Shown piece after piece: positions 9,001-63,529 of a stretch of DNA of 64,000 nucleotides (positions within the stretch are counted from its first letter, which is position 1; each line of letters starts with the position of its first letter). Source of the DNA: Somniosus microcephalus. Lineage: Eukaryota. The notes beneath the pieces were generated by a model. It was not told the DNA's origin, made no database searches, and saw only the letters and a program-made list of their open reading frames with translations. Location: NCBI GenBank assembly GCA_052327205.1, contig CM126202.1, positions 80,104,001 to 80,168,000 on the forward strand, given 5' to 3'. Position numbers and translations under genes: made by a program.

Positions 9001-9200
9001 ATGGTGCAACAATCAGAGAGAGCTGGCAACTGAACAACAATCAGAGAGAGCGGGCAATGGTGCAACAATCAGAGAGAGCGGGCAATGGAGCAACAATCAG
9101 AGAGAGCGGGCAATGGAGCAACAATCAGAGAGTGCAGGCAACGGAACAACAATCAGAGAGAGCGGGCAACGGAACAACAATCAGAGAAATGGCAATAGAA
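1..9200. repeat. Complex satellite, ~28-bp unit GGGCAATGGAACAACAATCAGAGAGAGC, with higher-order blocks
   Basis: Unit is visible continuously from base 1 to ~9200. It is purine-rich on +, and all long ORFs here are repeat translations (MEQQSERAGNGTTIRESGQWNNNQRERA). Confidence 0.97.
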
Positions 9201-9425: not shown

Positions 9426-11671
9426 AACACTAATTCAAGAGAGTGGACAATTGAGCTACAATCCAAGAGAGCGGGTGGGAGGACTGCATGTCGACTTGTT
9501 GGAATTGTACTGCTTTACATCAGAACCAGGCTGCACATTTTGTTGGATACATTAGGACACTTACAAATGTGGGGATTCAAAAGGCTGGGTACAGAGGCAC
9601 AGGAGCGCAGATTATCAAGGTTTAATATTTTCAGAGTCCCAGTATGGTGCACCATGCTGTTGGGAAGAGGTCGGGCGGGGAGGCAGCTGGAACCAAATTC
9701 ATGGGCAAGTGTGTTTTTTTATTGCTGCTGATTTTTTCATGTGTTTGATTTTAATTTGAAGTTAGTACTTGGGTGCCTCAATCTCGGAAAATACTTTCTG
9801 CTGGAATGTGACAGTGCAATATTTTTGGTGGCGTGCAATTGGGGAGGAAAATCGAAATTAGGGGGAAAGTTACATGCAATATGATTGGTGAATGAGAGCA
9901 GGAAATAAGCAGTTAAAATGAAGAAAATCTGATTTAAATATTTAACCAATGGGGAAGAAAATTGACATTGACTCACAGCCCTGATAAAGACTATAGACCA
10001 AAAATATTATCAAGCTGTGTACATACATTGACAATTTTGTATTTTTTTATAGTATGGTTCTCAGAGAGAGAAATCAAAGGGCAGTTGTCACAGACAATTG
10101 CGGATCACATCTTTTAGATACTAGAAAAGATTTGTGCAAGCAAAGAATAAACAAAAAACTTAACTTTTGTCATTTTTCTTATGACCACTCATTTTCTGAA
10201 CTTTTAGAAAAAGGAAGTGTTTTTATAGATTTTTTTGATTTCTGCCATTTACATGAAGTAATGATAAGGAGCGCTGACGAGCAGCAGCCCCAATGATGTG
10301 ATTCATCAAAAAAGTGTTTGGTTTACACAGAGATTAAACAAATGCCCCAGTTTCAGCACATTCAGCAGTCGTGCGGGCATATGGAACTGAAGCAAGAGAA
10401 TAAAATGTTACCAAATAGCTTGGGTTCCGCTTAAGCCTGCAGTTTTAGAAAAGCCAATTTAACGCTCCCACCGTTTTTGAAATTTATGTTTCAAATGATA
10501 TGCTAAAAAGTCCTGAAAGAAGAGACAGATCAGCCCCTCATCGCCAGACACCACTTTGCTTCCCATGTTACATTTACAATAGATTACCGGTATCTATATA
10601 TTTATTTCATTGAAGAGAAACTATTTCAGATCCTTTCAAATGATTAAGTGCATCATGTTAAAGTAACCAAAAATCATAGGGCTGGATTTCCGTATCCAGC
10701 ATTGGAACAATGCTAATAACGTTTGTAAAGGCATTTGTGAACAAGACTCACACTGAATATTAGACACGAATTGGAAACCAGCACCACTGTGTGAATGCTC
10801 AAACGATACTAACACTGAAGGCCTTTAGTTCAAGTGTCTCAGTGACAGATTTTTTGTTGCATGCTTGGTTGGAATTGCCACACGTGGCACAGGGAGTTTA
10901 AAAGGACATCCCCTCATGTGAGCAATTCCAAAATATACTTTTAAAGCTTGCAGTGGGACAGGCTGTTCAGCTCCCTGACATCATTAGGGACAGAAGCGCA
11001 CACTTTAGTAAAATAATCTGTGAAGTGTGGCATCCTGCCATTACTACATTGTCTCCAGAGTGGAGTTATTGGCTGCCGACCGCAGTGCCAATTCAGAAGG
11101 AGCCGAACGCAGTGCCAATTACTTTTTTTTAATTTTCTGCCACTTGACATAACCCATTAATGGAACTGGTCCTGTCCCACCCCGCCTCAGTGTTACAGCA
11201 TGGTGCAGTGCACAGACCCTACGGAGCCACAGTTGTGATTTCAGATCTGCGGCTTTGTAAATTAGCATGATTGTGGTGCCAATGTGGAGATGGTGTGCCT
11301 GTAAAATAAGTTTGCCTGAAATGTTTGTGTTAGTTTGTAGCAGCTGATGTGCCAAGGCTCCTTTGCACAGAATAAGTAGTATCACCGACAGGACTATCAC
11401 TGACAACACCAGGAAAGGGAGCCCACAGTTCATGTCAGATTTTTCCCCTGATCCTGGCCATCAGCAGTAGGAAACTGGTCATCAAGACCCAATTTTTCCC
11501 TTTCTTCATTTTTTTTCTGCCATCAGAGATGAGGTTGGGTAGAAGGAAGTCACCTTCTCTGTGACACCACCCAAAGCACACTGCTCCCTAGGAGTCCAGA
11601 AAACCAATTAGGTTAGGCCCACTGGAATCTGTTGTGGACACTAAACAAAAACAAAAGTTTCTGTACAAATG

Positions 11672-12722
11672 ACACTTGAGCACAAAAATCCAGGCTGACA
11701 CTCAAATGCAATATTGAGGGAGTGCTGCACTGTCAGAGGTGCCGTTTTTGGGATGATGCGTTAAACCAAGGCCCTGTCTGTCCTCTCAGGTGAATGTAAA
11801 AGATCCCATGGCACTATTTCGAAAAAGAGCTGGGGAGTTACCCCCGGTGTCCTGGCCAATATTTATCCCTCAATCAACATCATTAAAACAGATGGGCCTA
11901 GAAATTGGGTTTTGGCGCAGCAACGGCTTTAGCGCCGGAAGTTAGTGCCGGAGCTAAGTCGCGCTGGTCGGGCCAAAAATTCACTACTTCTGCGCCCAAA
12001 CGGCTGCCGGCGCTGCTGAAAGCTGTTAGCGCCTGAAAACTGGCGCTATGCGCTGAATTTCGGCGCTATTCCGGCGCTGCGGCGCCCGCTGCGGTGCGGC
12101 AGGTTCGGAAAGTGCAGGCCTCCTCCTTCCCTTAAGGAGGACCTGCCTGCACCCGGCCGCGGCCCGCGATAATCTTATTAAAAATGAGCCCGGCACCTCG
12201 GACAAGTGCCGGGCTTGCTTCTGTTCCGAGGGGGGGGGGGGAAGTCCGGGGAGGGAGCTGCGGCCAGGCGGGCGGCGGGAAAGCGGCCGGCCGCCGCGGG
12301 GCCTTTAATGCGCCGGCGCAAACTTGTGCAAGGCACCTCTGCCAGAACGTTGCTTGCGGCTGCCACGGGCGAGGCGGCCGCAAGTCAATTTCCCAGTTCG
12401 GGCGGGTTACCATGGCAACCGGGACGCTGCGCACACCGATGACGTCATCGGTGCCGGCGCAGCGCTACCGGTCTACCGCGGCGGAAGGGCCCCAGGCAAT
12501 TTAGGCGCCGGCGCCAATTGCAGCGCTAGGCCCTCTAGCGCCGCAAAATCGGCGCTAAGGGCACTGAATTTCTAGGCCATGATCTGGTCATTAACACATT
12601 GCTGTTTGTCTGTCGCATTCCCTACATTACAACAGTGACTGCACTTCAAAAAAGTACTTAATTGTATGTAAAGCACTTTGGGACGTCCTAAGGTCATGAA
12701 AGGTGCTATATACATGCAAGTT
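11672..12722 (+). mobile_element. Deu-domain SINE (SacSINE1/AmnSINE1-like) split by a MITE
   Basis: Deu core GAGGGAGTGCTGCACTGTCAGAGGTGCCG...AAAGATCCCATGGCACTATTTCG at 11716-11821. It resumes at 12579 (ATCTGGTCATT...) and ends in an L2-like tail GGTGCTATATACATGCAAG. Family name recalled from consensus, not searched. Confidence 0.8.
11895..12578. mobile_element. GC-rich non-autonomous DNA transposon (MITE) copy 1
   Basis: TIRs GGCCTAGAAATT...AATTTCTAGGCC with a 3-bp direct repeat ATG on both sides. 684 bp, interrupting a SINE. Confidence 0.88.
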
Positions 12723-12753
12723 CATTCCTTTCCTTTTCCTCATGAAATTCCAA

Positions 12754-13441
12754 GGCCTAGAAATTCAGTGGCCTGCGCCACCAGTTTGCGCCCAAAGAGG
12801 GCTTTTGCGCCAGTCTGCAAACTTCAGGCGAAATTCAGCAGGGCGCTAATGGCGGCGTTAGGCTGTAGCGCTGCGCCGCCACCGATGACGTCATCGGTGT
12901 GCGCAGCGCCCCGTTTCCGCGAAGAACGCCATATTAAGTCGCGCCCGCCTCTTCAGCGCCGGCCGCAAACAGCGACCGGTACACAGGGCCTACCTGTGGC
13001 GGTAGTGGCGGTAATTAAAGTGGAGGTGCGGCCGGCCGCTTTTTCGGCGGCCGCCTGCCCGCACCTCCTTCCCCGGCCTCCTCCACCCTCCCCCCCGCGG
13101 CATTGCCGGCTGCTTTCCGGGAGCCCGGCACTTCTCCGTTCTGCCGGGCTCTTTTGCCGGCACTCGCGATCGGGGCTCCGGCTGCTGCAGGCACCTCCCC
13201 CTTAAGAGAGGGAGGAAGGCCTGCAGTACCGCAGCCTGCCGCTCCGCTGCGGGTGGCGCTGCGGCCACTAGCGCGCCGATAATCAGTTTCAGCGCCCAAG
13301 CGGGGCGCCGAAACCCCTGTTTAGCGGCCGCCTTCCACTTGGTGCGCTGACACTGAATATCCCGCTTGCGCAAGTGGATCCGCGCGCAGCGGTAATTCCG
13401 GCGCCAGGCGAGCTGGGCGCCCCATAATGAATTTCTAGGCC
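12754..13441. mobile_element. GC-rich MITE copy 2, inverted relative to copy 1
   Basis: Same TIRs, 3-bp direct repeat CAA, 688 bp. Shares the internal palindrome and its flanks with copy 1 in reverse orientation. Confidence 0.88.
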
Positions 13442-15029
13442 CAAGTGTCCAATATACTCTTTATCACTCGTCTCTATACCTTTACAGAGCAATGACACCC
13501 TTCCTTTCAATAAGTGGTCAAAACAACACACATCTGCAGTATTTTCCTACACAGTTTATAGAGATGTGAAACTACATATCTGTTCAAGTAAAATGCAGGA
13601 ATTGTATCTTGCACCTCTTGGCCGGGGGGGAGCGGGGTCAGTTCTGGTATACCCCAGAAGAAACATTGAGCACAGCGAAAATCACTGCAGTTAAACATTT
13701 CAAATAGATTGTGCCTCAAGCAGATGGACTTGCCAATTCCTCGGCGTAGAGGGTTCAATTATCTTTTGGTCTCTCAGGAAAGTATTCACCGGATGGATCC
13801 TCATTGTCTAACTGCCCCCGGCAGCATCAGTGAGCGGGAACAAACACTCGAGGAGATCAGAGTAACAGCAACGCAACTCAGAGCGAGATCTTGGTCTACC
13901 ACCCAGTTGTTCATGCAGCAACCACGGTCCTTGAACAATGAATGAACCTCTGCCAATGTTTATATCACCCCAAAACTTCATTATCTATTAATCAGCCCTT
14001 TACAAATCCCGACCCTGAGGCAAACAAAGCTCTATTCATAAGCTCTGACCGGCTACGCTGGGTCAAAGGGAAGGACGTTGTCCCTACGTGTGCCCCAATA
14101 TTTCAAGCAGGTGATTAACGACAAAGTGAAGCTTCACCTCGAGCCCTCTAGTGATTGAATCTGAATGATAGAAACCGCGGACACGATAAGTGTTGTGCTG
14201 TGCTGTGACAAGCCTTCTCGCGTGCCGCAGGGATCCTGTTCAAAGTCAAAGGCACTTTGTATGTTTTTTGTAAAATAAACTTTCAGTCGGGCTTACAGTC
14301 CGTGTCGTCAGAGAGTGCAAGTGAGACTGTTTTATGGAACCAAAGGGTTTCTAATCATGCTGATATATTTATAATGGTGAAATGTAGAAGAGAGAACTTC
14401 TGTAGTCACTCAGATAGTCAGGGGTAAATAGCTTGCATTAATCAGCATATAACTCCCATCAAGTCCCTTCCAAAGTCCCTCCTCCCTTTAAGCTGCGAGA
14501 TGAGGAGTGAAGCCCCCCCCCCTCCCTCCTTTGTAGAACAATCCACGACAGATGTCCTTGTGCTAAGACTCAGCAACAGATCTCCCACCAAGGCACAACA
14601 TCTGCTCCAAGTCCATTTACTCCAGGAAACAGAGGGGAGAAAATTGCTCTTTAATTCATGCAAAAAACCTACAGACGTTGCCTTCGGTTTATCCCTGTCG
14701 ACCAATGTTATATGACCCACTGGGTTAAACGTGAAGCTAATCTGCTAACCATCAAGTGCAAGTAAATACAGAAAAAGCAACAGTGGATTTTTTTTAATCA
14801 CTCCAGCTCCTCCAGGTCAAGCCTCGCGGGGTAGGAACAAACTGAGATTCTGCAGATCAGATGGAACTGGTGAATATGAATATTCTGTGAATATAGGACC
14901 AGCACCACTGCAGGTGACAATAACAAAGCTGCACTATCAAAAGTACAAAGTCCAGAAGCAAGCCAACTGCTGTCCTGATGTAACATGTTCTAATTCCTGC
15001 ACTATATCTCAGGTCTGTATTGGAAAGAT

Positions 15030-15395
15030 CTTCCATTTATATAGCACTACCCACCTCCTCAGGACATTCCCAAGTTCTTCACAGCCACTGAATTGCTGCT
15101 TTTTTAACGAGCATTTTGTAGGCAAACATAGCAGCCAATTGCACACAGCAAGGGCTCACAAACAACAATGAGATAAATGATCAGTTAATCTATTATTCTT
15201 TCAAATAGTGTCATGGGATATTTTACATCCACCTGAGAGGCAGATGGGGCCTCAGTTTAACATCTCATCCAAAGGACGGCACCTCCAACACTGTAGCACT
15301 CCCTCAGTACTGCACTGGAGCATCAGCCTAAATTATGTGCTCAAATCCTGGAGTGGGACTTGAACCCACAACCTTTTGAATCAAAGGTGAGCATG
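15030..15395 (-). mobile_element. Deu-domain tRNA-derived SINE
   Basis: Reverse complement of the Deu core (GGCACCTCC...GCACTCCCTCAGTACTGCACTGGAG), a B-box-like GGGTTCAAGTCCC on minus, and an L2-like tail at ~15030. Confidence 0.8.
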
Positions 15396-15894
15396 CTGAT
15401 ACTATTGTTACAGGGCTAAGACTGTTCCACACTGAATGCAAAATGTGCAAGAGCAAACTGATACACTCACTTGCAAGTATATCACTAGAAAATTTTCACT
15501 TCCTTTGACATTCGAGCTATTCATTAGGATTCTGGTCTCTACATTTTTGTTATTCCCAATGCAGAGCAAACAAACATCTACAAGGGATGCTGAATTTCTT
15601 TGTAGTCAGCTGCAGATTATTCCTTGATAAATCTACAGTACTGGCATCACAAGACATTATTAACCTTTTGTGAATGTCACTACACATCAAGGATATGGCG
15701 TGCACACTGACAGCTGCTGCAAGCACACGGGGAAAGCAGGGCTAATATTAAACATTAAACATGTACATATGCAGGGTATCCAAAAAAGAATGAAAAACCA
15801 AGGAGTCAGTTTCAAGGAATAATCTGAGATTTTCAGACATCATTAACCACTAAAGTAAAACCTTCTCAGTCACGGGCAATCGTTCACTCTTTTC

Positions 15895-16200
15895 CTGCCT
15901 TTCTTCCCTCTCCTGAAAATGGTGACTCCTGCTGAGCTATCGTTTCACCCACACCAGCAGTTCTCCAATGCAGCCATTCTTTATGCGAGCGCTAGCAGCC
16001 TATTCGACTGTGGGAGCATCACAGCCCCAGCCCCCGATCCTGTCCTCATGCATGTGTGCAGTTTCCAGGAGGGATTCGCTGGTAAGCGAACTGGGAGTGG
16101 AAAAGCTGGTGAGTGTTTCCCATTCCTAGCCGAGTTAAATTATAGTGGCTCCTATCATTGCCCTGATAGATTATCGTATATTTCATACTCCCTTGGAACA
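15895..16200 (-). mobile_element. LF-SINE-like element
   Basis: Minus strand reads TGAGGACAGGATCGGG..GCTGTGATGC..ACAGTCGAATAGG..GAGTCACCATTTTCAGGAGAGGG, resembling the LF-SINE body and 3' end as recalled. Confidence 0.65.
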
Positions 16201-16239
16201 AATGAAAGCACACAGAATTGGAGGTAGCCTTTTGACTTA

Positions 16240-17225
16240 GGTTGGAAATTGGTTGGGAGGTAGGAGACAGTGCGGATAAAGGGTAGGTACTCTGACTGGC
16301 AGGATTTGGCAAGTGGTGATCCCCAGGGATCTGTTCTGGGGCCTCAACTTTTCACCATATTTATTAATGACTTGCATGAAGGAATAGAGAGTCGTATATC
16401 CAAGCTTGCAGATGGCACTAAGTTAGGAGGCATAGTAAGTAGTGTAGATGGGAGCAGGAAGTTGCAAAGGGACATAGACAGATTAAGTGAGTGGGCAAAA
16501 CTATGACAGATGGCGTTTAATGATGGCAAGTGTGAGGTCATCCACTTTGGACCTAAGAAAGATAAATCGGAATATTTTCTAAATGGTGAAAAATTAGGAC
16601 CTGCAGAGGAGCAAAGAGATTTGGGATTCCAAGTACACAAATCATTTAAAGATAGCAGACAGGTACAAAAGGCAATCAAACAGGCTAATGGAATGTTGGC
16701 CTTTATCTCTAGGGGGCTGGATTACAAAGGGGTAGAAGTTATGCTTCAGTTGTGCAGAGCCTGGATCAGACCTCATCTAGAGTTCTGTGTTCAGTTTTGG
16801 GCACCGTGCCTCAGGAAGGATATATTGGCCTTGGACGGGGTGCAGCGCAGATTCACCAGAATGATACCGGGGCTTAAAGGCTTGTATTCCCTTGAGTATA
16901 TTGAGGTGTTTAAAATGTTAAAAGGAATCAATAGGGTAGATAGAGAGACATTATTTCCTCTGATGAGGGAATCAAGAAAAATTAGAGCAAGACCATTGAG
17001 GAGGGAAATCTAAAAGCACTTTTTCACACAAAAAATAGCAGAAATCCAGAATTCTCTGCCCAAAAAACCTTTGGATGCTAGGGAAATTGGAGCTTATAAG
17101 ACTGAGCTCACTAATATTTGTTGGGTAAGGGTTGTCAAGGGATATGGAGTTGAGGTACATATCAGCCATGATCTAATTGAATGAAAGAGCGGGCTCAAGG
17201 GGCTAAATGGCCTACTCCAGTCCCT
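16240..17225 (+). mobile_element. CR1 LINE 3' fragment (degenerate RT)
   Basis: PQGSVLGPQLFTIFINDL...KLADGTKLGG, KCEVIHFG and RPHLEFCVQFWAP motifs with an in-frame stop. CR1 3' UTR ATCAGCCATGATCTAATTGAATG. Confidence 0.92.
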
Positions 17226-17595
17226 GTGTTTCTTCTTTTGAAAATAGGCACTTGGAGTCCACATTTAACACATTAAAGAAAAGATTTTATATGTGGTGGT
17301 TAATGAGCTATGAGCTCATTAGATTGTACAGGAGGTTCAGAGTCCCTGAGGTTATTTAGATTACAGCCTGCTTTTACAATACCCTGGACTCAGAACGCCT
17401 GCACTGTTTGTAAATGTTACTTACTGATATTGTAAAGCTGTCTCGGGCAGCGATAACAAAGTTCATTAAAATCTTACGCTTCCTCTGATAAAGTCCAAGT
17501 GTATATGAGGAAAGTTGTTAGTAAAAAAATCCTAATCTGAATAACGGAGTTGGAATAAATCGAGACCGTCTCGTTTGGTCAAACATGAGTTTTAA

Positions 17596-20500
17596 TTCTC
17601 ACTGCTCATCAACCTGAGTCCATTAAAACTTCCAACCAGCAAGCTAGTTATTCTATTTCAACCTACGGTTTTCTCCCCACCCCCACCCAGCCCCCACCCC
17701 CACCTGAAGGTGCTGACTCTCTCCTCCCCTGAAGGTGCTGAATCCCTCCCCCCTCCCCGAAGGTGCTGACTCTCTCCCCCTCCCCTGAAGGTGCTGGCTT
17801 TCTCCCCCCTCCCCAAAGGTGCTGACTCTCTCCCCCTCCCCTGAAGGTGCTGACTCTCTCTCTCCTCCCCTGAAGGTGCTGACTCTCTCCGCCCCTGAAG
17901 GTGCTGACTCCCTCCCCCCTCCCCGAAGGTGCTGACTCTCTCCCCCTCCCCTGAAGGTGCTGACTCTCTCTCTCCTCCCCTGAAGGTGCTGACTCTCTCC
18001 CCCTCCCCTGAAGGTGCTGACTCTCTCTCTCCTCCCCTGAAGGTGCTGACTCTCTCCGCCCCTGAAGGTGCTGACTCCCTCCCCCCTCCCTGTAGGTGCT
18101 GACTCTCTCCCCCTCCCCTGAAGGTGCTGACTCTCTCCCCCTCCCCTGAAGGTGCTGACTCTCTCCCCCTCCCCTGAAGGTGCTGACTCTCTCCCCCTCC
18201 CCTGAAGGTGCTGACTCTACCCCCTCCCCTGAAGGTGCTGACTCTCTCCCCCTCCCCTGAAGGTGCTGACTCTCTCCCCCTCCCCTGAAGTTGCTGACTC
18301 TACCCCCTCCCCTGAAGGTGCTGACTCTCTCCCCCTCCCCTGAAGGTGCTGACTCTCTCACCCTCCCCTGAAGGTGCTGACTCTACCCCCTCCCCTGAAG
18401 GTGCTGACTCTCTCCCCGTCTCCTGAAGGTGCTGACTCTACCCCCCTCTCCTGAAGGTGCTGACTCTCTCCCCCTCCCCTGAAGGTGCTGACTCTCTCCC
18501 CCTCCCCTGAAGTTGCTGACTCTACCCCGTCCCCTGAAGGTGCTGACTCTCTCCCCCTCCCCTGAAGGTGCTGACTCTCCCTCCTCCCCTGAAGGTGCTG
18601 ACTCTACCCCCTCCCCTGAAGGTGCTGACTCTCTCCCCGTCTCCTGAAGGTGCTGACTCTCTCCCCCTCTCCTGAAGGTGCTGACTCTCTCCCCCTCCCC
18701 TGAAGGTGCTGACTCTCTCTCCCCTCCCCTGAAGGTGCTGACTCTCTCTCTCCTCCCCTGAAGGTGCTAACTCTACCCCCTCCCCTGAAGGTGCTGACTC
18801 TCTCCCCGTCTCCTGAAGGTGCTGACTCTCTCCCCCTCCCCTGAAGGTGCTGACTCTACCCCCCTCCCCTGAAGGTGCTGACTCGCTCCCCCTCTCCTGA
18901 AGGTGCTGACTCTCTCCCCCTCCCCTGAAGGTGCTGACTCTCTCCCTCCCAGCACCTTCAGCAGAGGGCAAAAGAGTCAGCACCTTCAGGGAAGAAGAGA
19001 GTCAGCACCTTCAGGGGAGGGGAGCGAGTCAGCACCTTCAGGGGAGGAGAGAGAGAGTCAGCACCTTCAGGGGAGGGGAGAGTGTCAGCACCTTCAGGGG
19101 AGGGGGAGAGAGTCAGCACCTTCAGGGGAGGGGAGAGTGTCAGCACCTTCAGGGGAGGGGGAGAGAGTCAGCACCTTCAGGGGAGGAGAGAGACAGTCAG
19201 CACCTTCAGGGGAGGAGAGAGACAGTCAGCACCTTCAGGGGAGGAGAGAGAGAGAGTCAGCACCTTCAGGAGAGGGGGAGAGAGTCAACACCTTCAGGGG
19301 AGGAGAGAGACAGTCAGCACCTTCAGGGGAGGAGAGAGAGTCAGCACCTTCAGGGGAGGAGAGAGACAGTCAGCACCTTCAGGGGAGGAGAGAGAGAGAG
19401 TCAGCACCTTCAGGGGAGGAGAGAGAGAGTCAGCACCTTCAGGGGAGGAGAGAGAGAGTCAGCACCTTCAGGGGAGGGGAGAGTGTCAGCACCTTCAGGG
19501 GAGGGGTAGAGAGTCAGCACCTTCAGGGGAGGGGGAGAGAGTCAGCACCTTCAGGGGAGGAGAGAGAGAGAGTCAGCACCTTCAGGGGAGGGGGAGAGAG
19601 TCAGCACCTTCAGGGGAGGAGAGAGAGAGTCAGCACCTTCAGGGGAGGAGAGAGAGAGTCAGCACCTTCAGGGGAGGGGAGAGTGTCAGCACCTTCAGGG
19701 GAGGGGGAGAGAGTCAGCACCTTCAGGGGAGGGGGAGAGAGTCAGCACCTTCAGGGGAGGAGAGAGTCAGCACCTTCAGGGGAGGAGAGAGAGAGTCAGC
19801 ACCTTCAGGGGAGGGGGAGTGTGTCAGCACCTTCAGGGGGGAGAGAGAGAGTCAGCACCTTTAGGAGAGGGGGAAAGAGTCAGCACCTTCAGGGGAGGGG
19901 GAGAAAGTCAGCACCTTCAGGGGAGGGGGAGAGAGTCAGCACCTTCAGGGGAGGAGAGAGAGAGTCAGCACCTTCAGGGGAGGGGGAGTGTGTCAGCACC
20001 TTCAGGGGAGGAGAGAGAGAGTCAGCACCTTCAGGGGAGGGGGAGAGAGTCAGCACCTTCAGGGGAGGGGAGAGAGTCAGCACCTTCAGGGGAGGAGAGA
20101 GAGTCAGCACCTTCAGGGGAGGGGAGAGAGTCAGCACCTTCAGGGGAGGGGGAGAAAGTCAGCACCTTCAGGGGAGGGGGAGAGAGTCAGCACCTTCAGG
20201 GGAGGAGAGAGAGTCAGCACCTTCAGGGGAGGGGGAGAGAGTCAGCACCTTCAGGGGAGGGGAGAGAGTCAGCACCTTCAGGGGAGGGGGAGAGAGTCAG
20301 CACCTTCAGGGGAGGAGCGACTGAGTCAGCACCTTCAGGAGAGGGGGAGAGAGTCAGCACCTTCAGGGGAGGGGAGAGAGTCAGCACCTTCAGGAGAGGG
20401 GGAGAGAGTCAGCACCTTCAGGGGAGGGGGAGAGAGTCAGCACCTTCAGGGGAGGGGGAGAGAGTCAGCACCTTCAGGGGAGGGGAGAGAGTCAGCACCT

Positions 20501-21082
20501 TCAGGGGAGGGGGAGAAAGTCAGCACCTTCAGGAGAGGGGGAGAGAGACAGCACCTTCAGGGGAGGGGGAGAGAGTCAGCACCTTCAGGGGAGGAGAGAG
20601 AGAGTCAGCACCTTCAGGGGAGGAGCGACTGAGTCAGCACCTTCAGGAGAGGGGGAGAGAGTCAACAACTTCAGGGGAGGAGAGAGAGAGACAGCACCTT
20701 CAGGGAAGGGGGAGAGAGTCAGCACCTTCAGGGGAGGAAAGAGAGAGAGTCAGCACCTTCAGGGGAGGAGAGAGAGAGAGTCAGCACCTTCAGGGGAGGA
20801 GAGAGAGAGTCAGCACCTTCAGGGGAGGGGGAGAGAGTCAGCACCTTCAGGGGAGGGGAGAGAGTCAGCACCTTCAGCGGGGGAGAGAGAGTCAGCACCT
20901 TCAGGGGAGGGGGAGAAAGTCAGCACCTTCAGGAGAGGGGGAGAGAGACAGCACCTTTAGGGAAGGAGAGAGAAAATGAGTACCTTCAGGAGAGTGGGTG
21001 GGGGGAAAACCAGAGGTTGAAATAGAATAACTAGCTTGCTGGTTGGAAGTTTTAATGGACTCAGGTTGATGAGCAGTGAGAA
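17596..21082. repeat. ~3.5-kb foldback: 69-bp perfect inverted arms enclosing two opposed 28-bp minisatellite arrays
   Basis: 17596-17664 is the exact reverse complement of 21014-21082. Unit CCCCTGAAGGTGCTGACTCTCTCCCCCT runs to ~18949, then flips to its reverse complement up to ~20990. Confidence 0.93.
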
Positions 21083-21334
21083 CACTTGGTTTCCCACTGT
21101 AAAGTAATGATATCCAAACTGTTCCAACACATTATACAGCGCAGCTCACCTACAAACAATTCTCAAGATCAAACTCCTCCTTAAAAAGCAAATTTTGAGA
21201 CAGCACAGTCTCGGATTTTTATGTATTGTCATTCAGCATATGACTTTTCCTGAACCTGGCATCATCTTTATTTACCATACCGAGCTTTACCTGAAAGCAC
21301 AATCCTTAATCACATAACCTGTTTGATTGTAAAG

Positions 21335-21436
21335 AAAGTCTTGCATTTATATAGCACCTTTCATGACTTCAGTACATCCCAAAGTGCTTTACAGTCAATG
21401 AAGTACTTTTGAAGTGTAATCACTGTTGTAATGTAA
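21335..21436 (-). mobile_element. Deu-SINE/L2-type 3' tail fragment
   Basis: CTTGCATTTATATAGCACCTTTCATGAC...CCCAAAGTGCTTTACAG...AAGTACTTTTGAAGTG is the reverse complement of the tail at 12630-12720. Confidence 0.7.
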
Positions 21437-21524
21437 GAAGAGTATATAGTCTCAATTTGTCTCCTATTATTTTCTAGGAAAATATTAACATGCTAAATTA
21501 CATGTGTTTACATGCATAAACATA

Positions 21525-21860
21525 AAGTTCAGCTGGTAAATGCAGTGTGTTGCTGAGTTTTACAGAAGAGAAGGTCTCAGGATTGGTGCTGAATGAACTG
21601 ATCTCAGCCAGGATGGAAGTAGCAATACAACAATCAGCTTGGCCCCGGCATTCCCGGCGAGGGAGAGGGAACATACCCAGGATCACTAGCAAGTGGGCTT
21701 TGCTGCCCACATGTGAGGGGAGGCCAGAGTCACTCACTGCCTAGGTGCATACTGGATGAAGAATGGCCACTTTGGTTAGCTGGCAGATGGTGAACAGCAG
21801 CCGTGGAAGTGTTCCCCAGTAGCAGTCAACATCTTTAGGACAAGGGGAGTGGGGAAAATT
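21525..21860 (+). mobile_element. LF-SINE-like element (degenerate)
   Basis: CTGATCTCAGC, CACTCACTGCCTAGG, ATGAAGAATGGCCAC and CCGTGGAAGTGTTCCCCAG...AGTCAACATCTTTAGGA occur in LF-SINE order. Confidence 0.65.
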
Positions 21861-23195
21861 GGAAAAAGAAAGAACTAGGATTTGTAGCAAGAAAATAGCT
21901 GGTAAAATTATATCCGTTCGTCACATTGATTCCCACACTCCACTAGTTGGCATTCCTGACCTGACCAACACCAATAAATCACCCCTGACCTGAGAGAAAT
22001 AGCGTCATTTGAAAAATGCCAAAACTTCAGAGATAAAGCAATTCAGAAGTAAAGCATTAAATTTTCTCTCTGAGTGCTCAATGCTGTTACATTACCCTCT
22101 TTAAGGCCTTTGGAGAAAATATTTCTAGCAAATGTAGAAAATGCTTTGTATAGATTGTTCTGCAAATAAAGTTACAGCTAACAGATTGGTTAGAATCTTA
22201 GTCACTAGTGGGAATAGAAAGGACACAGCAGATGGAGCTAAGCTCCTGACCCACAACAGCAACATGATGTGAACTAAATATTACTGAAGGATTATAGACA
22301 CCTTCCCTTCAATTCACTCAAAAATTGAATTTTTCTATATCACTAAAATGCCACTGGGAAGCTGCATTTTTTAAAACATTGTGCTTGTGACACACTGTAA
22401 TTGTAATATTTATGCAAACAACTGCCTTTCCTCTCTATAAGACAGCGAATCAGAGTTTGGTAACTTAGTTGGGAGAGGGTCTATTGGTAAGCAGGCTCTT
22501 GGGGTATAGTTGGAATGTTATTGGAAAGTATGTACCCCACTTTGTTATAGATCTTGGGCTGGACAGTACTCCAAATTCAGACTGTCAAATGTTTCTTTGT
22601 GTAATGAAATGTAAAAAAAACAATTTTCAACATTAGGGCAGCTGTGAGTGGTGTGCCTTTATCTTAAATGTTACAGTGAAGGGTTATTGTGCAATAGGAA
22701 TGTGTTACACTTTGCAGTACTGTATCACCAATCATTAGGACGTTCATTGTGGGTACAGGGAACATCACATAACAGCCCGAATAAGGTTCCATAACACAGA
22801 AAGCTGCAAAAGCAGCACCTCAGAAAAACATCACATGCCACAAGCACTGTATAAAGTGGTTACCCTTCCAATATTGACTGGAATTGAACAGCATATCATC
22901 TTCCCTCTCCCAATCTTCAACATTTCAGTAAACAGGACCACAGCTGGAGGTCTCTGCCCTGTGATCACCGTCAACCTATTAACTCCTGCCTACAGCAGTC
23001 TTTCAATTAACTGGCAGTGCAAACAATGTCACAGCGAATGTGCCTGGGGGTCGCCTCTGTTACGGCAAAATACTTTCCAAACTTTACACATTATAAAAGC
23101 TCGCACAGCACAACCAGGGAAAGTAAAAGGCAGAGGGCCTGAAAAAACATTTGGTTTTGTACTTCAGTAATAAAACAAGATAATTAAAAAAGCAG

Positions 23196-23354
23196 TAATA
23201 CGATAGCAAAATACTGCGGATGCTGGAAATCCGAAATAACAACAGAAAACGCTGGAAAAACTCAGCAGGCCAGGCAACATCCGTGGAGAGAGAAACAGAG
23301 TTAAAGTTTCAGGTCGAAACCCTTCTGCTGAGTTTTTCCAGCGTTTTCTGTTGT
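23196..23354. mobile_element. Short Penelope-like element remnant with inverted segment and 15-bp TSD
   Basis: TAATTAAAAAAGCAG is duplicated at 23181-23195 and 23355-23369. The internal AACAACAGAAAACGCTGGAAAAACTCAGCAG is present with its exact inverted copy. Confidence 0.75.
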
Positions 23355-23962
23355 TAATTAAAAAAGCAGAATGTCCAGAGCTAGTCACATTTCATCCTGC
23401 CTCCAATATACAACCAAACATGGAATTAACAAGAATATCAGCAAGCTTTCTATTGAGGTTAATTTGCGTCACACTTAGTTATACTTAAACTCTATGTACG
23501 TAGCTCACTAAGCAAAATACTAAATATAGTGAGACAATTGCATTAAATTGCAAAATATAGATTGGCAGAAAATATTTTACACTTCAAAACAGCCATTAAT
23601 TTTAGCATAAGTAACATAACAGCCTAACCCTGTTAACTGCAGTTGAAAAACAAGTGCTTGTCTTTTATAAATTAGAAGAAATTTTAAATTATTTATATCC
23701 AATTCGATTTATATTTTTAACATCATCTATCACAGATTATGTTCCATCATTCACAGTGCTAACCAGTTCCAGGCATTATTTTTTGGGCTCTGTCCATTCT
23801 GCTGTACTTCATACCAGTGAAGAGTTTGGATTCAATTACAAAAGCATAACCTTCTGCCTTGTACAAGGAGAAAAGTGTTTGCATTTCTCTCAGTGATATT
23901 GTAACATTCTTCTTAGTTCCCCAAAAGCAAGTTTTCTTTCAATCCGTTGTTCCTGCACTTAC

Positions 23963-24094
23963 CTTCATCACGTTTCCTCTTGTTATTCTCAGCACTGGAC
24001 GGTGTGATCCCCAGAATGCCACTGATGGAGTAGGAAGATCCTGCAGGGTCCGTGGCGGCAGAAGGAACTTGAGTCACTGGCACGGTGCTCGGTG
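23963..24094 (-). CDS. PAX5: PAX5 exon 5 (octapeptide, basic NKRKR motif)
   Basis: ccccacag|CACCG...GAAG|gtaagt, 132 bp, phase 1/1. Encodes [45 protein letters not shown]; YSISGILG is the PAX5-type octapeptide. Confidence 0.96.
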
Positions 24095-24399
24095 CTGTGG
24101 GGAAATAACGACAGCCAGGTTTAGATAGCATAGAGAAACAACGAGCCAAGATCTGAGACTTTCTCATGTGAAAAGCTGATCCAGCACAGTCAATGCTGGC
24201 TTCCTGACCAGGATTGAGTTTCAAGGATGAGCACCACACAAAGCCACCTGCCACTCTTAGGATGAACATAATTAATTCTTGACTAGGATTGTGGGCGTTC
24301 GATACCAGGGGAGGGAAGAACTAACCCTGAGCTGCAGCCATGGAGGCAATTTCAACTCTAATCAAAATTTCCATTGGTTCGCAGTCAAGTCCATTGAAC

Positions 24400-24550
24400 C
24401 CAGATTTTTGAATATTAAGGGAATCAAGGAATATGGGGATAGTGCAGGAAAATGGAGATGAGGTAGATGATCAGCCATGATCTTATTGAATGGCGGAGCA
24501 GGCTCAAAGGGCCAAATGGCCTTCTCCTGCCCCTATTTCTTATGTTCTAT
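24400..24550 (+). mobile_element. CR1 3' end fragment
   Basis: AAGGGAATCAAGGAATATGGGG...GATCAGCCATGATCTTATTGAATGGCGGAGCAGGCTC...TTCTTATGTTCT. Confidence 0.8.
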
Positions 24551-24884
24551 ACATCTGTCCTTCCTTACACATTAAGTAGACAATAATAAGAGTAATGTTT
24601 TTTCCAGGGTCATCGCCGGAGTTCACAGGCTGAGGTCACAGGTCCCAGCACTTACGATAGGACCGATGGCCCATAGATTTTCAGAGTCCAGTTTTCTCAC
24701 CTCAGTGAAAGAGCAGCCAGACCACTCATAGGAAAACAGGTGAAAGTCAAACAATTAGCATAACTGGCTCCACAGTCCCCGTATAATTGATTTTGGAGCT
24801 AAAGTCCGTAGCTGTTTGATTTTGGCCCCAATAGTTCAGCTTGGCCACTACAGCAGTCCCTGCGTTTCATTGTCTCAACTAGTT

Positions 24885-25032
24885 CTTAAGGCTAAAGGGA
24901 TCAAGGGATATGGGGAGAAGGCAGGGACAGGGTACTGCATTTGGATGATCAGCCATGATCTCATTGAATGGCGGAGCAGGCTCGAAGGGCCGAATGGCCT
25001 ACTCCTGCTCCTATCTTCTATCTATCTATCTA
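24885..25032 (+). mobile_element. CR1 3' end fragment
   Basis: AAGGGATCAAGGGATATGGGG...GATCAGCCATGATCTCATTGAATGGCGGAGCAGGCTCGAAGGGCCGAATGGCCTACTCCTG followed by a (ctat)n tail. Confidence 0.8.
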
Positions 25033-25069
25033 GTTAAACACCTAGCTCCCAACTTAAAAGTCCTGATTT

Positions 25070-25722
25070 GGAAGCATACATATATTAGTCTACTGAACTC
25101 ATTAGAAGTGTACAGATATTTGGTCCATTGAACCCATTAGAAGCCTATGGAATAAAAACAGAAAATGCTGGAAATACTCAGCCGGTCAGGCAGCATCTGT
25201 GGAGCGAGAAACAGAGTTAACGTTTCAGGTCGATGACCTTGCGTCCAAACCTGCTGAGTATTTCCAACATTTTCTGTTTTTATTTCAGATTTCCAGCATC
25301 CGCAATATTTTGCTTTTGTAAAAGCCTATGGATATTGTTCCATTGAACCCATTAGAAGCCTATGGATATTGTTCCATTGAACCCATTAGAAGCCTATGGA
25401 TATTGTTCCATTGAACCCATTAGAAGCCTATGGATATTGTTCAATTGAACCCATTAGAAGCCTATGGATATTGGTCCATTGAACCCATTAGAAGCCTATG
25501 GATATTGGTCCATTGAACCCATTAGAAGCCTATGGATATTGTTCCATTGAACCCATTAGAAGCCTATGGATATTGTTCAATTGAACCCATTAGAAGCCTA
25601 TGGATATTGTTCAATTGAACCCATTAGAAGCCTATGGATATTGTTCAATTGAACCCATTAGAAGCCTATGGATATTGGTCCATTGAACCCAGTAGCAGCC
25701 TATGCATATTTGTCCACTGAAC
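25070..25722. repeat. 34-bp tandem repeat AAGCCTATGGATATTGTTCCATTGAACCCATTAG, interrupted at 25152-25321
   Basis: Period of 34 (25322, 25356, ...), about 11 copies right of the insertion and 2-3 degenerate copies to the left. Confidence 0.92.
25152..25321. mobile_element. Penelope-like element remnant with inverted arms
   Basis: AAAACAGAAAATGCTGGAAATACTCAG...GAAACAGAGTTAACGTTTCAGGTCGATGACC followed by inverted CTGCTGAGTATTTCCAACATTTTCTG. AAGCCTATGGA flanks both sides. Confidence 0.72.
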
Positions 25723-25879
25723 TAATTTCTTTGCTTGGGCTGCTTTTGTCAGTCCCTAAACAGGTCACTAGATAAAGTACCATGTGGATCTAAGTCATTC
25801 TATTGAAATGAATGAACTACACTTACTAGCTTACCCCTAGTCAATAACATAGTGTGATGCTGCCTATAGGTAAATAATC

Positions 25880-26000
25880 TGCTAAAACTCACTGTCCAAG
25901 CTGGCACATGAAGAATAGATGCTCAACTGAGGTACTGGTGATCTCACTACCTGTGGAACTGTACCCCAGCATGAGACACTGTCTTCAGGAAAGGCAAGGA
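25880..26000 (+). mobile_element. LF-SINE-like 3' fragment
   Basis: ACTCACTGTCCAAGCT..CACATGAAGAAT..GAGGTACTGG..CTGTGGAACTGTACCCCAGCATGAG..CTTCAGGA. Confidence 0.65.
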
Positions 26001-27067
26001 CAATGTCGGGGGTCGGGGTGGGGGCTAAACATAAACATCAGCACAGGAAGACATTGAACAGAGCGAGCAAGAATTGGCTTCTGCACACCCTTACTAGTTG
26101 AGCTACAAACATTGCCTCTGTATTGTGTATTGTTAATAACTCAGGTGCAAAGAGAAAGTCCTTCAAAGAAACCTTCATTGCTTTCAGACCGAGTTTTTGA
26201 AAAGTACTGTAGTGCCTAAAATCCCCACTTTAGCACCACAGTCAGTACAGAGCCTGGCAGTCGATAGTCCATCTGTACTGTAAATCACAAACATACACAA
26301 GCACTGAGGGTTATGACAATTTAGAAAAAAAAGCTCCATTTTAATAGAAATCTGAATCACATGCTGCAAACTGCAAAGACACAATCAACATAGAATGAGA
26401 AACCGAGGAACGGGAATTAAAAGAAAAGAAAAAAACTTTCATAACTCCTTAGTGCCTAATGATGCAGAAAATGTAATGAATAGTCCCCTTTGTGGATTTA
26501 TTACTTTAATTACATCACATTCTATGGCCATTCTATTGCCGCTTTAAATTTTAGATTTCAATTTTGTATTACAATGTGAAATCTTTTTATCATAATAAGC
26601 GTCAGACTTCAGAAACCAAGTTATATCGGTGAATTTCATTTGAAGAATTAAGTTGCTTAGAAATACAGAGGCAGTGGAGAAGTTGAAGCATCCTGATTGT
26701 TAGACAGAAAAACCCAACCGTAATAACAATCAGGTTACGTTTCAGTTATTGCCCAAACGAGTAGTAACTAATTAGAGGTTAATCCTCCTATCATGCTTTG
26801 AGATCAGCTGTAATCTGATCAAGGATGAATACAATAGTGGCCTGATGTATATTCATACCAAGGCTAGGCATGACCAGGAGCAGGAGATGAGTTTTAACCA
26901 AGTTATTTCATGCTCTTTTTGTTCAGTAAGTATATAAAAAGATGTGACCCTTTGATATATGGACAGATTCAAAGTTACCAAACTCAAAAAGGAATGGTGA
27001 AATCATTATGATTTAGATCACCCCTCCTCAAATATAATCCTTGAATGAATCATACAAAAGGTGCAGA

Positions 27068-27875
27068 GAACAACAACAACAGCTTGTAGTAAAACGTCCC
27101 ACAGGAGTGTTATAAAACAAAATTGGAGACTGAGCTACATAAGGAGGAATGAGGGCAGATGACCAAAAGCTTGGTCAGTGAGGTAGGTTTTAAGGAGTGT
27201 CTTAAAGGAGGAAAGAGAAGTAGAGAGGCGGAGAGGTTTAGTGAGGGAATTCCAGAGCTTAGGTCCTTGGCAGCTGAAGGCACGGCCACCAATGGTTGAG
27301 CGATTAAAATCAGGAATGTTCAAGAGACCAGAATTAGTGGAGCACAGATATCTCGGATGGTTGTGGGGCTGGAGGAGATTACAGAGATAGGGAGGGGCGA
27401 GGCCATGGAGAGATTTGAAAACAAGGATGAGAATTTTGAAATCGAGGTGTTGCTTAACCGGCAGCCAATGTAGGTCAGCGAGCACAGAGGTGATGGGTGA
27501 ACGGGACTCGGCTTAGGACACAGGAAGCCGAGTTTTGGATGACCTCAAGTTTACGTAGGGAGGCCAGCCAGGAGTGCATTGGAATAGTCAGGTTTAGAGG
27601 TAATAAAGGCATAGATGAGGGTTTCAGCAGCAGATGAGCTGAGGTAGGGGCAGAGATGGGCAATGTTACAGAGGTAGAAATAGGCAGTCTTAGTTATGGT
27701 GCGGATATGTGGTCAGAAGCTCATTTCAGGGTCAAATATGACACCAAGGTTGCAAACAGTCTGGTTCAGCCTCAGACCGATGCTAGGGAGAGGGATGGAG
27801 TCGGTGGCTAGGGGATGGAGTTTGTGGTGGGGACTGAAGTCAATGGCTTTGGTTGGAGGAAATTTCTGCTCATCC
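27068..27875 (-). mobile_element. L2-clade LINE 3' fragment
   Basis: Minus ORFs NLGVIFDPEMSF and LADLHWLPVKQHLDFKILILVFKSLHGLAPPYL...GGRAFSCQGPKLWNSL, with an (aac)n tail. Confidence 0.92.
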
Positions 27876-28353
27876 AGTACAGAATCAGGTGCTGAAATCA
27901 GTTCACTAAGAATCAATTAAATTCAGGCTATACTGTATTCCATTTAATTGAGGGAAGAGCACAAAGTCTGTGAGATGCACAACAAATATCAGGGCCTTTG
28001 GGTATATTTGCAGATCCTAAGTGTCTACAGATCTGTTCTCAGTGTTCCCAGAACAGCTCCTTATCCTGAAGCACCGGCCTAGCTCACATTGGAAGAATGG
28101 GCACTCTCCGTGAAACTGTACACCAGAATGAGTAACTGTCGTCAGGAAAGGCAAAGCAGAATATGGGAGTGGGGGGGGGGGTCACAAACAACAGCACAGG
28201 AAGGGGGTGGACAGAGAGCAAGAATGAACTTCTACACAGATACGGAGTTGTTGTAGATATAATTACTCGCCAGATAGAACATCAGATTTCTCCAAGATTT
28301 AGAGCAATGTCTCTCTTACAGAGGTGAAGCAGCAGTGTAGGAATGACTCTCAC

Positions 28354-28418
28354 CTATAGTATGGGATGAGACCGGCGATTGCTGGTTTGGAGGCTGCTGC
28401 ACCTTTGTTCGAATAATC
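28354..28418 (-). CDS. PAX5: PAX5 exon 4
   Basis: ttttattcag|GATTATTCGA...ACTATAG|gtgaga, 65 bp. Encodes (R)IIRTKVQQPPNQQSPVSSHTI. Confidence 0.96.
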
Positions 28419-29267
28419 CTGAATAAAAGTAAAATTAAAGAAAGAAAATCAATTTTCAAAAATATATTGTTAAAAGAAAAATAAATCATTGCCCCTTAAT
28501 TGGTCATTTTCTGCTAGCTCTTTCAATACCTTATTTCTCTTTTGAGTTACATATGAAATTCCTATCACATAATAATATTTGCAAAATAAATAGCCTATAT
28601 GTGTGTTTCAAGGAGTTAAGTTACTTTGTGTTTCTCTCCCCTTCCCTTTTGCCATGTGTCATGTCCCAGCCAAGAGAAATGGAGCCCACCAGCTCCCAGA
28701 CTCCTTTCTATGGTACATAGCGATGCTTCCTGGTGTTACTTTTCTTTAATAATAGTGTTTATTGTAATTTGATGCACACATAAATAATCCAGTATTAAGG
28801 TCAGCGCAACACAAAGCATGGCCCATTAATGCTGCCACGCAATATAGCTTCTATTCCATTTATGGATGTTAATACACAGCCAGTTTTATACTGCTACTAA
28901 TGTATAGTTTGATTTTTTTTTTAATTATTACAGGAGAATTATAATGGTGAATCCTATTCCTGCCTTCATCAGTGGTCCAAGTATGGAGCTTACATTCAAT
29001 GTGTATTCTACCTCTTTGTATCTAACCACTTTAACATTGGATTTTTTTTTCAAATGACACTCAACTGATGTAACTTTTCTTGTAGATTTTAATCATTTCT
29101 ACCTTTTCTCAGTTTGCCTTTTGGTCATTGAAGTGTGTCTAACCTGGTGCATTTATGGTGGCTGAGATTTCTATACCAAGTAGATTGATAATACAAATTT
29201 AAAACTTTCAATTATGTAGAGGGCTCCATGTTAGTGCAGATCATTATTTTATTTTAAAAAGATCTAG

Positions 29268-29580
29268 TTTGAGCTCCCTGATAGCTTAGCTAGTTAAAGC
29301 AGGAAATGAATGTGCCAAACAGAGCTGTTTGGTCCTTGGTTTGATTCCCTGTCAATGCTGAATTAGCAAGGATATTGGTGTAGGTGCTACAATTGTTGTC
29401 AGTCCTGGGATGGGGAGAGGAAAGTACACTAAATGTACACTCTAGGGAGCCGCAAGCCTACATTTCGTTGTACTGCACTTGTGCACTAACAATGACAATA
29501 AAGTTGATTATTATTATTATTATTATTATTCAGTAACCTATGTTGGAATTTCACATGTGTGGATGAATTCCAGGTTTTGT
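29268..29580 (+). mobile_element. LF-SINE-like 5' portion interrupted by a LINE tail and (TTA)n
   Basis: TAGCTTAGCTAG..GGTTTGATTCCC..TGCTGAATTAGC..GGTGCTACAATTG, then the insert ATTTCGTTGTAC..AATGACAATAAAG(TTA)n at ~29460-29530, then CAGTAACC..TGTGTGGATG. Confidence 0.5.
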
Positions 29581-29715
29581 CTGATTACACCCCTGTAAGG
29601 CACCTTGGTACATTTTACTATGTTAAAGGTGCTATATAAATGCAAGTTGTTGTTGTTTCTGAGGACTATTGTTTCTCTAACATAAGAAAGCAAAATGTGG
29701 GACCTAGGCCCATCT

Positions 29716-29912
29716 CAAACAACAACTTACATTTATATAGCGCCTTTAACATAAATAAAAATGTCCCGAGGCACTTCACAGATGTGTAATCAAAAAAAAA
29801 ATGAATGCCAATCCAGAGCATGAGATATTAGGAGGGGTGGTTAAAGAGGTGAGTTTTACGGAGGGTCTTAAAGGAGGAGAAGAAAATGGTGAGGCAAACG
29901 AGTTTAGGGAGA
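29716..29912 (-). mobile_element. L2-clade LINE 3' fragment
   Basis: AACAACAACTTACATTTATATAGCGCCTTTAAC...GGGTCTTAAAGGAGGAGA...TTTAGGGAGA, similar to 9201-9425. Confidence 0.7.
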
Positions 29913-31152
29913 GAAAGCAGTAAAAAACATAAAATTAGATAAATTAGAAAGGAGCAATTAAGTGATCCCAAGATTGGATTTTAAAAGCCTTAAAGATATA
30001 GGAGGAGGAAAGATCTGAGGGATGTAACAATTTCACAGTTCTGAGGAACCAGGAAAGAATCATTCAGAGAAGTAGACCCTGTAGAATCAGTTAGTTAAGT
30101 AGACTGCGCAATACATCTTTAATTTCACTGCAGTGCCAATGTAGGCAGGTGGAAGTGTATTTAGGATGGTCTATTTGCAGCTTAGAAAAAAAGTAAAGAG
30201 GAAAGGAGAACTGACCATAGTAGTATGGATAAAATAGAGAGAGAGAGAAGTTGAAGGCTAAATGTGAGAGAGGGATTGTATCCTGTCTAGGATTGGAGTG
30301 TGAGAAAGAGGCTTTTGGAGCAGTAGTCAAGTCTTTGAACAGACTTGGGCAGCTGAGAGTAAAGAGTTGTGATGAAAAAGTGTTTGCCATGAAAGGGAAA
30401 ACTAGGCTTATTGGAGGCAACTTCAGCAATGGAAAAGTGTGTTTCATTTGAGGTCACGGCAGATAATTTGGCCATAAATGTGAAGAAGAACTATGCATGG
30501 AACCAAAGGTTGGACATGGGAACTGTTGTTTGGATTTGTGACAGATACGAAGAAAATGTGTCTTAGAAGATTTAAAAGAAACTACATTTTATGGACCCTA
30601 TAATGAAAGGCACGTGGGAGATAAAGATATAATGATCCAGACATTGTACAATAAGAGGGTGACAGCTGTTAATGCTGAGAGCAATCAATTTGAAGGAAGC
30701 TGATAAATATAGGAGGAAAAGAGCCAGCAGGGTTGGGTGATGAGAGAGGAGTTACTGATATAAAGAAGGAACAGAGTAGGAGAGAGGACAGTGCCATGGA
30801 AAGCCACTGTGTAAAAGGAAAGAGTCGCAGAATGAGGAATAACCACTTGGGTCGAATGTCAGAATGGTCAATCACCTGTAGAGCTGTACCTCAGTTAGGA
30901 GTTTGACGCTTCAGAAAATGAGATGGGAATGAGGGGGACATTAAATATAACTTTTAAAATATAAATTTATATATACATATATATCATCAACCAAAACCCT
31001 CAGAGAGTTAGTGCTATGTGTTTTTGCTTTTTCTCTTGTCTATCTATTCCAGATGTTCTTTACAAATTGCAAAAACAGAATAAAGCTGTTGTGTTATGTA
31101 GACTGAGGGTCAAGTGTCGGTTAATGTTGGACAGTGCACCCCCTATGGGTCA

Positions 31153-31356
<204 letters not shown>

Positions 31357-43785: not shown

Positions 43786-44393
43786 NNNNNNNNNNNNNNN
43801 NNNNNNNNNNNNNNNNNNNNNNNNNNNNNNNNNNNNNNNNNNNNNNNNNNNNNNNNNNNNNNNNNNNNNNNNNNNNNNNNNNNNNNNNNNNNNNNNNNNN
43901 NNNNNNNNNNNNNNNNNNNNNNNNNNNNNNNNNNNNNNNNNNNNNNNNNNNNNNNNNNNNNNNNNNNNNNNNNNNNNNNNNNNNNNNNNNNNNNNNNNNN
44001 NNNNNNNNNNNNNNNNNNNNNNNNNNNNNNNNNNNNNNNNNNNNNNNNNNNNNNNNNNNNNNNNNNNNNNNNNNNNNNNNNNNNNNNNNNNNNNNNNNNN
44101 NNNNNNNNNNNNNNNNNNNNNNNNNNNNNNNNNNNNNNNNNNNNNNNNNNNNNNNNNNNNNNNNNNNNNNNNNNNNNNNNNNNNNNNNNNNNNNNNNNNN
44201 NNNNNNNNNNNNNNNNNNNNNNNNNNNNNNNNNNNNNNNNNNNNNNNNNNNNNNNNNNNNNNNNNNNNNNNNNNNNNNNNNNNNNNNNNNNNNNNNNNNN
44301 NNNNNNNNNNNNNNNNNNNNNNNNNNNNNNNNNNNNNNNNNNNNNNNNNNNNNNNNNNNNNNNNNNNNNNNNNNNNNNNNNNNNNNNNNNNNN
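43786..44393. other. Assembly gap (608 N)
   Basis: Run of N. Both flanks share ACCTGTATTTCCACA in CA-rich context, suggesting an unresolved tandem repeat. Confidence 0.99.
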
Positions 44394-63482: not shown

Positions 63483-63529
63483 TCAGCCAGCCAGCACAGA
63501 TTGGCAAAACAAGTTGACAAATTAATTGA

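Follow-up and report, generated by a model that had tools for sequence, protein, structure and literature searches.

A 3.5-kb minisatellite palindrome in the Pax5 region of Somniosus microcephalus, with a unit probably derived from the tail of an old SINE-like family

The stretch of DNA analysed here (the window) comprises 64,000 nucleotides of Somniosus microcephalus (assembly GCA_052327205.1, contig CM126202.1, positions 80,104,001 to 80,168,000 of the forward strand). A tblastn search with a shark Pax-5 protein located five exons, all on the minus strand between 42046 and ~23950, which account for residues 1-206 of 389. Two exons of the window encode a paired box (Pfam PAX), and the octapeptide exon is 96% identical to shark proteins labelled Pax-5 by their sources. 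No later Pax5 exons were found in the window by tblastn. As the octapeptide exon is the last one found before the palindrome described below, the palindrome would lie within the next Pax5 intron. A run of 608 N (43786-44393) is located upstream of the first Pax5 exon found.

The palindrome is a 3.5-kb mirror repeat spanning 17596-21082 (3487 bases). It consists of two period-28 arrays (Tandem Repeats Finder) which are reverse complements of each other, each reading outward from the centre, and which meet back to back at ~18948. Its parts and the nearest exon are as follows.

17596..17682, minus strand: left one of the two flank copies, exact over 69 bp and identical at 84 of 87 positions with the inner extension
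17683..17702, minus strand: linker from the outermost left unit to the flank, G-rich on the minus strand and longer than that of the right arm when the outer ends are aligned
17703..18946, minus strand: left minisatellite arm, 44.8 copies, 45 cores, units of 25-29 bp
18947..18990, no strand: centre, at which the arms are joined directly and without a spacer element, as given by the assembly alone
18950..20998, plus strand: right minisatellite arm, 72.8 copies, 73 cores, units of 25-31 bp
20996..21082, plus strand: right copy of the duplicated flank, running on into unique sequence from 21083
23958..24095, minus strand: Pax5 octapeptide exon

The exact 69-bp inverted flank is formed by 17596-17664 and 21014-21082, and the 84 of 87 identities are obtained when the alignment is extended inward. 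Each unit of ~28 bp is made up of a 17-base core and a purine run. Complete head-to-tail units number 44 in the left arm and 72 in the right, so that both contain the at least four internal monomers characteristic of a SINE-derived tandem repeat; the copy numbers, like the join at the centre, are those of the assembly and not of reads. The apex is slightly asymmetric, since the left arm ends at the centre in ordinary units and the right arm begins with degenerate ones. In total, the right arm is degenerate at both ends and the left arm at its outer end only, as if an array had been cut internally. The degenerate outermost right unit lies at ~20976-20998. Several candidate features of the centre were set aside: Rfam matches to miRNA and snoRNA models were below the gathering scores and reflect the hairpin alone, and the folding z-score of -15.5 is caused by the palindrome. 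Canonical G-quadruplex patterns, with loops of up to 7, were absent.

Read contigs of four runs (X13, X15, X17 and X1; four organisms from three studies) were compared with 17240-17722. X13 and X15 belong to one study, X13 is possibly the assembled sample itself, and runs with a word share below 0.2 were left out; by word share the organisms are related at about 95-99.9%, with X17 at ~95%. Contigs entering the duplicate from the unique sequence on its left were present in all four runs, with an overlap of 89 letters in X17 and of 30 letters in X13, X15 and X1, the latter being one below the 31-letter bridging rule and thus read as a probable branch of the assembly graph. Loose ends leading from the duplicate into the right unique flank were recognized by eye in two of the four runs (30 of 30 letters in X15 and 25 of 30 in X17). 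X13 has a separate contig for the 69 bases, at a depth of 8.1 where the unique flank has 4.2, and this contig is followed by both inner versions; in X17 the two flank copies are separate contigs with one private change each (17612 and 17630). The depth in X13 and X1 implies a third overlapping contig, and the summed contig depth over the C-rich stretch was not taken as a copy number. The outermost right unit is present also in contigs of X15 and X17, and the right flank copy of X17 runs into this same degenerate unit and a unit-like purine spacer. As the flank is two-copy in the reads of four organisms, it is not an artefact of one assembly; it is very likely present in two copies. The single-copy state preceding the duplication was not found in any of the four organisms compared, all of which already carry the duplication. 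The duplication is therefore older than the split of the sampled organisms, and an array probably predates this split as well.

Concerning the unit itself, the preliminary description had pointed out look-alike motifs at 15928 (minus strand), 21823 and 25973, which were confirmed at these places; a fourth was added at 28130. They are located at the ends of decayed copies of an interspersed family.

15883..16156, minus strand: decayed copy with the tail motif closest to the unit (15928) and weaker body homology
21510..21870, plus strand: decayed copy, the longest in the window, with tail motif 21823 and a candidate tRNA-like head
25841..26000, plus strand: decayed copy with tail motif 25973
28040..28190, plus strand: decayed copy with tail motif 28130, absent from the preliminary description
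29270..29430: candidate 5' part (head and start of the body) of the same SINE-like family, with a marginal alignment to 21510-21680

In the order 15928, 21823, 25973 and 28130, the motifs share 14, 13, 12 and 11 of the 17 core bases with the unit. When the four were combined into a profile, the unit was outscored by none of the 119288 other window positions and by none of 20000 shuffles. When the closest copy was left out of the profile, the score of the unit was reached by 0 of 20000 shuffles over 17 columns and by 1 of 20000 over 22 columns, and the sole window position above the unit was that left-out copy. After removal of the motif, the preceding 110 bases still aligned among copies 21823, 25973 and 28130 at levels reached in at most 3 of 2000 trials under either null; for copy 15928 the corresponding figure was 4-18 of 2000 with two partners, and the alignment with the third was not significant. 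Of five candidate copies, leave-one-out profiles without the tail recovered two clearly (E 1e-5 and 1e-4) and one weakly (0.15; the copy at 15883-16156), and failed to recover the other two (28130 and ~30892). Support was also obtained from outside the window: a 2346-nt contig of X15, which belongs to another locus, matches the core and, running on from it, agrees with window 25951-25966 at all 16 bases. As that segment directly precedes tail motif 25973, the contig carries the core in tail register. Loose ends of X13 and X17 resemble this contig by eye.

Both the window statistics and the read contigs from other loci support the earlier proposal in so far as the unit would come from the 3' end of an old SINE-like family. 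The unit is homologous to part of an interspersed family and very probably represents its end, the match to the family tail spanning only 17-22 bases. The outermost right unit, on the other hand, does not appear to be an unamplified SINE end as had been suggested, because three bases are missing from its core and, judged on the 10 bases that follow the core, it falls outside the best 16 of the 118 units. In general, SINE likeness is not greatest in the terminal units of the arrays. No profile match to the SINE body was obtained at E<=10 in 17230-21340, and accordingly the extended terminal unit leading into the rest of the SINE, which is usual in the SINE-derived satellites (sSat) of squamates, is absent over the same interval and threshold.

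From its size, dispersion and purine-rich end, the family would seem to be a SINE. A tRNA head was searched for with ARAGORN (0 genes) and Rfam (no tRNA match at E<=10); the candidate heads at 21510-21580 and 29270-29430 align with a score of 60, which is marginal against the best of 500 shuffles (58). Rfam includes an RNA family model derived from LF-SINE, and a search of 14500-31500 against Rfam gave 15 matches at E<=10, none of them SINE-derived. LF-SINE, the name used in the preliminary description, is known from coelacanth and tetrapods, and we take it to be a doubtful identity for the family. Nothing found supports the name: motif searches of papers and supplements yielded no LF-SINE sequence, and alignments may be held in further supplements. 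The likeness, compared by description only, lies in being an old short interspersed family that is possibly tRNA-headed. LF-SINE (LFSINE_Vert) is listed as a tRNA SINE (PMC5753468; PMC13063735). The shark SINEs named in the portions of the literature consulted are SacSINE1 and HE1 (PMC5499810; PMC3747384; PMC10468316), and these portions contain no placement of LF-SINE in sharks.

A Deu-SINE identity (SacSINE1 or AmnSINE1), which had been our initial guess, was dropped for a family lacking matches to the L2-like ends of the window. SacSINE1 Deu-SINEs are similar in being old SINEs of cartilaginous fishes with copies 70-75% like the consensus, as given in the consulted part of their description, but SacSINE1 has a 3' end in common with an L2 LINE (PMC5499810), whereas the unit's family matches no L2-like or CR1-like end among the LINEs of this one window. 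Because a second SINE-like family does match such ends here, SacSINE1 is an unlikely identity for the family of the unit. Copies of the second family occur at 11650-11900 with 12580-12740, 15020-15346 (minus strand), 21338-21439 (minus strand) and 32814-32917, and it is their 3' end that matches the L2-like ends in the window; this second family is presumably the better candidate for a SacSINE1-type Deu-SINE. It is interrupted by one (~11895-12580) of two related GC-rich and CpG-rich elements of ~690 bp in opposite orientation, the other being at ~12750-13440, both of which are MITE-like by eye. Decayed LINE fragments are present at 16200-17235 (plus strand), 27060-27880 (minus strand) and 60060-61270 (minus strand). 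The one directly left of the palindrome has a weak reverse transcriptase match (E 2.8e-6) and is taken by us to be CR1-like, and the 27-kb fragment is presumably L2-like.

The two arms differ in their unit variants. There are 20 variant types among the 44 complete units of the left arm and 25 among the 72 of the right arm, and only 3 of 42 types are common to both. Units belonging to multi-copy types private to one arm number 42 compared to 10.8 expected (0 of 10000 permutations), a figure to which strand-specific sequencing errors could add. The small number of shared variants indicates that the arms evolve separately, and unit turnover occurs within arms. The flank copies, with 3 differences in 87 positions, fit neutral decay at 1-5% divergence. 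At 17631, the whole of the listed depth in X1 shows a different base, resembling a change common to both arms. Gene conversion between the arms was considered on this ground and rejected, as the contig depth of 10.6 is nearer to the 12.0 of a popped bubble than to the 17.0 of full collapse; likewise, 0 differences in 69 positions are unremarkable at 1-2% divergence.

The preliminary description proposed that a SINE tail together with its flank was inverted-duplicated and the tail motif amplified. The derivation of the unit from the family tail and the inverted duplication of tail and flank hold up, whereas the SINE at this site is conjectural, no body having been detected. We favour, as a reasonably likely explanation, that a SINE-tail minisatellite and its flank were inverted-duplicated with loss of the SINE body, and that neutral growth of each arm followed. 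An old SINE-like copy in the Pax5 intron would have had its 3' end adjoining the flank of 69-87 bp, and its last ~28 bases, the 17-base core plus a slippery purine run, would have been duplicated head to tail. A template switch in replication, or fold-back repair, may then have copied the tail or array and the flank backwards and rejoined them upstream, the inverted copy taking the place of the SINE body. Two template switches would be involved: synthesis would proceed through flank and tail, fold back over tail and flank, and return upstream with loss of the stretch between, presumably the SINE body. The observed order of unique sequence, inverted flank, inverted array, array, flank and unique sequence is the one that two such switches give, and a new junction links the inverted copy with the unique DNA upstream of it, as in template switching. 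The inversion would have taken place before the four sampled organisms split. Each arm would subsequently have grown and turned over internally by slippage or unequal exchange, and the shifting register and asymmetric centre could keep the palindrome imperfect enough to last. That a SINE was present here, that a template switch occurred, that sequence was deleted and in what order the array grew and was inverted are all steps which we infer; most likely, the palindrome is neutral.

Another possible origin, which we regard as rather unlikely, is that the unit came from a SINE tail elsewhere, so that a dispersed minisatellite array was imported and later inverted-duplicated. The absence of a detectable SINE body at the locus, terminal units that are not specially SINE-like, and joints in X17 that carry unplaced tandem units would all be consistent with importation. 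However, Tandem Repeats Finder detected no other array of the unit within the window, and among the contigs listed those from other loci with the core run on as SINE-like sequence and not as arrays. Moreover, a G-rich and then A-rich stretch follows the last unit of the palindrome, which resembles the ends of the family copies in the window and speaks against importation.

Alternatively, the direct join at the centre could be an assembly collapse hiding a spacer, e.g., two SINE bodies back to back. Long repeats assemble poorly, and the centre is known from the assembly alone. Nevertheless, this is improbable: there is no N at the centre, the right arm opens with three unit variants unique in the arrays, as a true array end would, and a hidden spacer would leave the duplicated outer flank unexplained.

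Selection on the palindrome is likewise given only a small probability. It might act on a double-stranded hairpin of ~1.3 kb in the Pax5 pre-mRNA (through editing, small RNA or splicing) or on structured intronic DNA. Long palindromes are called unstable and rare in the consulted part of one report (PMC10766186), and this one is present in four of four organisms compared; 1247 of the 1333 aligned left-arm bases are complementary to the right arm, and 1316 inter-arm pairs are predicted, with a longest helix of 79 bp. However, pairing is an automatic consequence of the repeat, the two arms have diverged by drift, the difference between the flank copies is that expected of unconstrained sequence, and the organisms are close to each other. 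The about 1300 inter-arm pairs predicted on folding the Pax5 sense strand are thus attributable to the repeat and are no evidence of function. In its most developed form, to which we give the same slight chance, the palindrome would be kept because its pre-mRNA duplex, tuned by repeat number and edited or processed, affects Pax5 output in shark B cells, and other tails of the family may have formed such arrays elsewhere.

Foldback (FB-type) transposons have long inverted arms of tandem units, and the form of the palindrome, with inverted tandem arms, unequal copy number and identical ends, fits a non-autonomous DNA transposon of this type whose long terminal inverted repeats would consist of the 69-bp end and tandem sub-repeats. 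The likeness ends there, as no target-site duplication of more than 2 bases was found at 31 symmetric boundaries and none at the true boundary, and the 69-bp end occurs in only two contexts among the contigs listed (at 85% likeness), with about double depth, so that dispersed termini are lacking. The absence of a target-site duplication and of further flank copies among the contigs listed argues against such an element, which is considered very improbable. That the likeness of the unit to the SINE tail is due to chance, the array having arisen from ordinary intron sequence, is hardly credible. In its favour, the match is short and three of the four copies were originally chosen for their resemblance to the unit, but the leave-one-out and shuffle tests and the other-locus contig in tail register speak against it.

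SINE-derived tandem repeats are already well known; the back-to-back arrangement across species is the new part. In the portions consulted, previous studies showed that the sSat of squamate reptiles likewise have a unit that is part of a SINE, occur in tens of copies and are internally homogeneous, but their units are of 70-290 nt compared to 28 nt here, and they usually keep an extended terminal unit reaching the SINE end, whereas no SINE remnant is left in the present case (PMC10702118). The available text of that paper contains none of the words inverted, palindrome, head-to-head and shark, and here two arms stand back to back. In human, at least 7276 tandem repeats, or 23% of mini- and satellites, were reported to be transposon-derived and to grow by local duplication; the parts consulted describe single arrays, in contrast to the inverted pair with duplicated flank found here (PMC3389668). 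Inverted duplication with deletion by template switching (ODIRA or INV-DUP-DEL) has also been described, and as far as the consulted text goes it is similar in the inverted copy beside a new junction and in a palindromic centre that later becomes asymmetric; those are kb-to-Mb events in patients or yeast, while the present one is small, old, shared across species and has minisatellite arms (PMC10766186). A comparable locus, with back-to-back arrays and a duplicated flank across species, was not found in a thin search of parts of the literature.

What is less usual is that a spacer-free 3.5-kb palindrome of two minisatellite arms, situated in a vertebrate gene of development and B cells, has persisted through several species splits. 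The palindrome offers a small natural case for palindrome persistence through register shifts, central asymmetry and drift of the arms, and it may serve as a length-polymorphic marker. It also predicts a long intronic RNA duplex, which can be checked for editing.

Further repeats accompany the palindrome in the window. A satellite of at least 9.2 kb (1-9187; ~28-bp period, 329 copies, 75% matches, strong strand skew) lies in the same Pax5 intron, and its unit is unrelated to that of the palindrome. A 34-bp minisatellite at 25322-25722 (11.8 copies at 96%) is separated by a short repeat insertion from its older single copies at 25085-25151. A short palindromic repeat family is represented at 23209-23359, 25151-25290 and 63500-63620, the arms of the 23.2-kb copy folding on themselves. 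The minus strand of 62754-62828, which precedes the first Pax5 exon found by about 20 kb, strongly matches the Rfam model of the CPEB3 (HDV-like) ribozyme over its full length, with 56.7 bits where the gathering score is 35. By eye, the 5' strand of its first helix and the partner strand deviate from the model in step, and the match could possibly represent a retrotransposon-borne or ancient HDV-like ribozyme.
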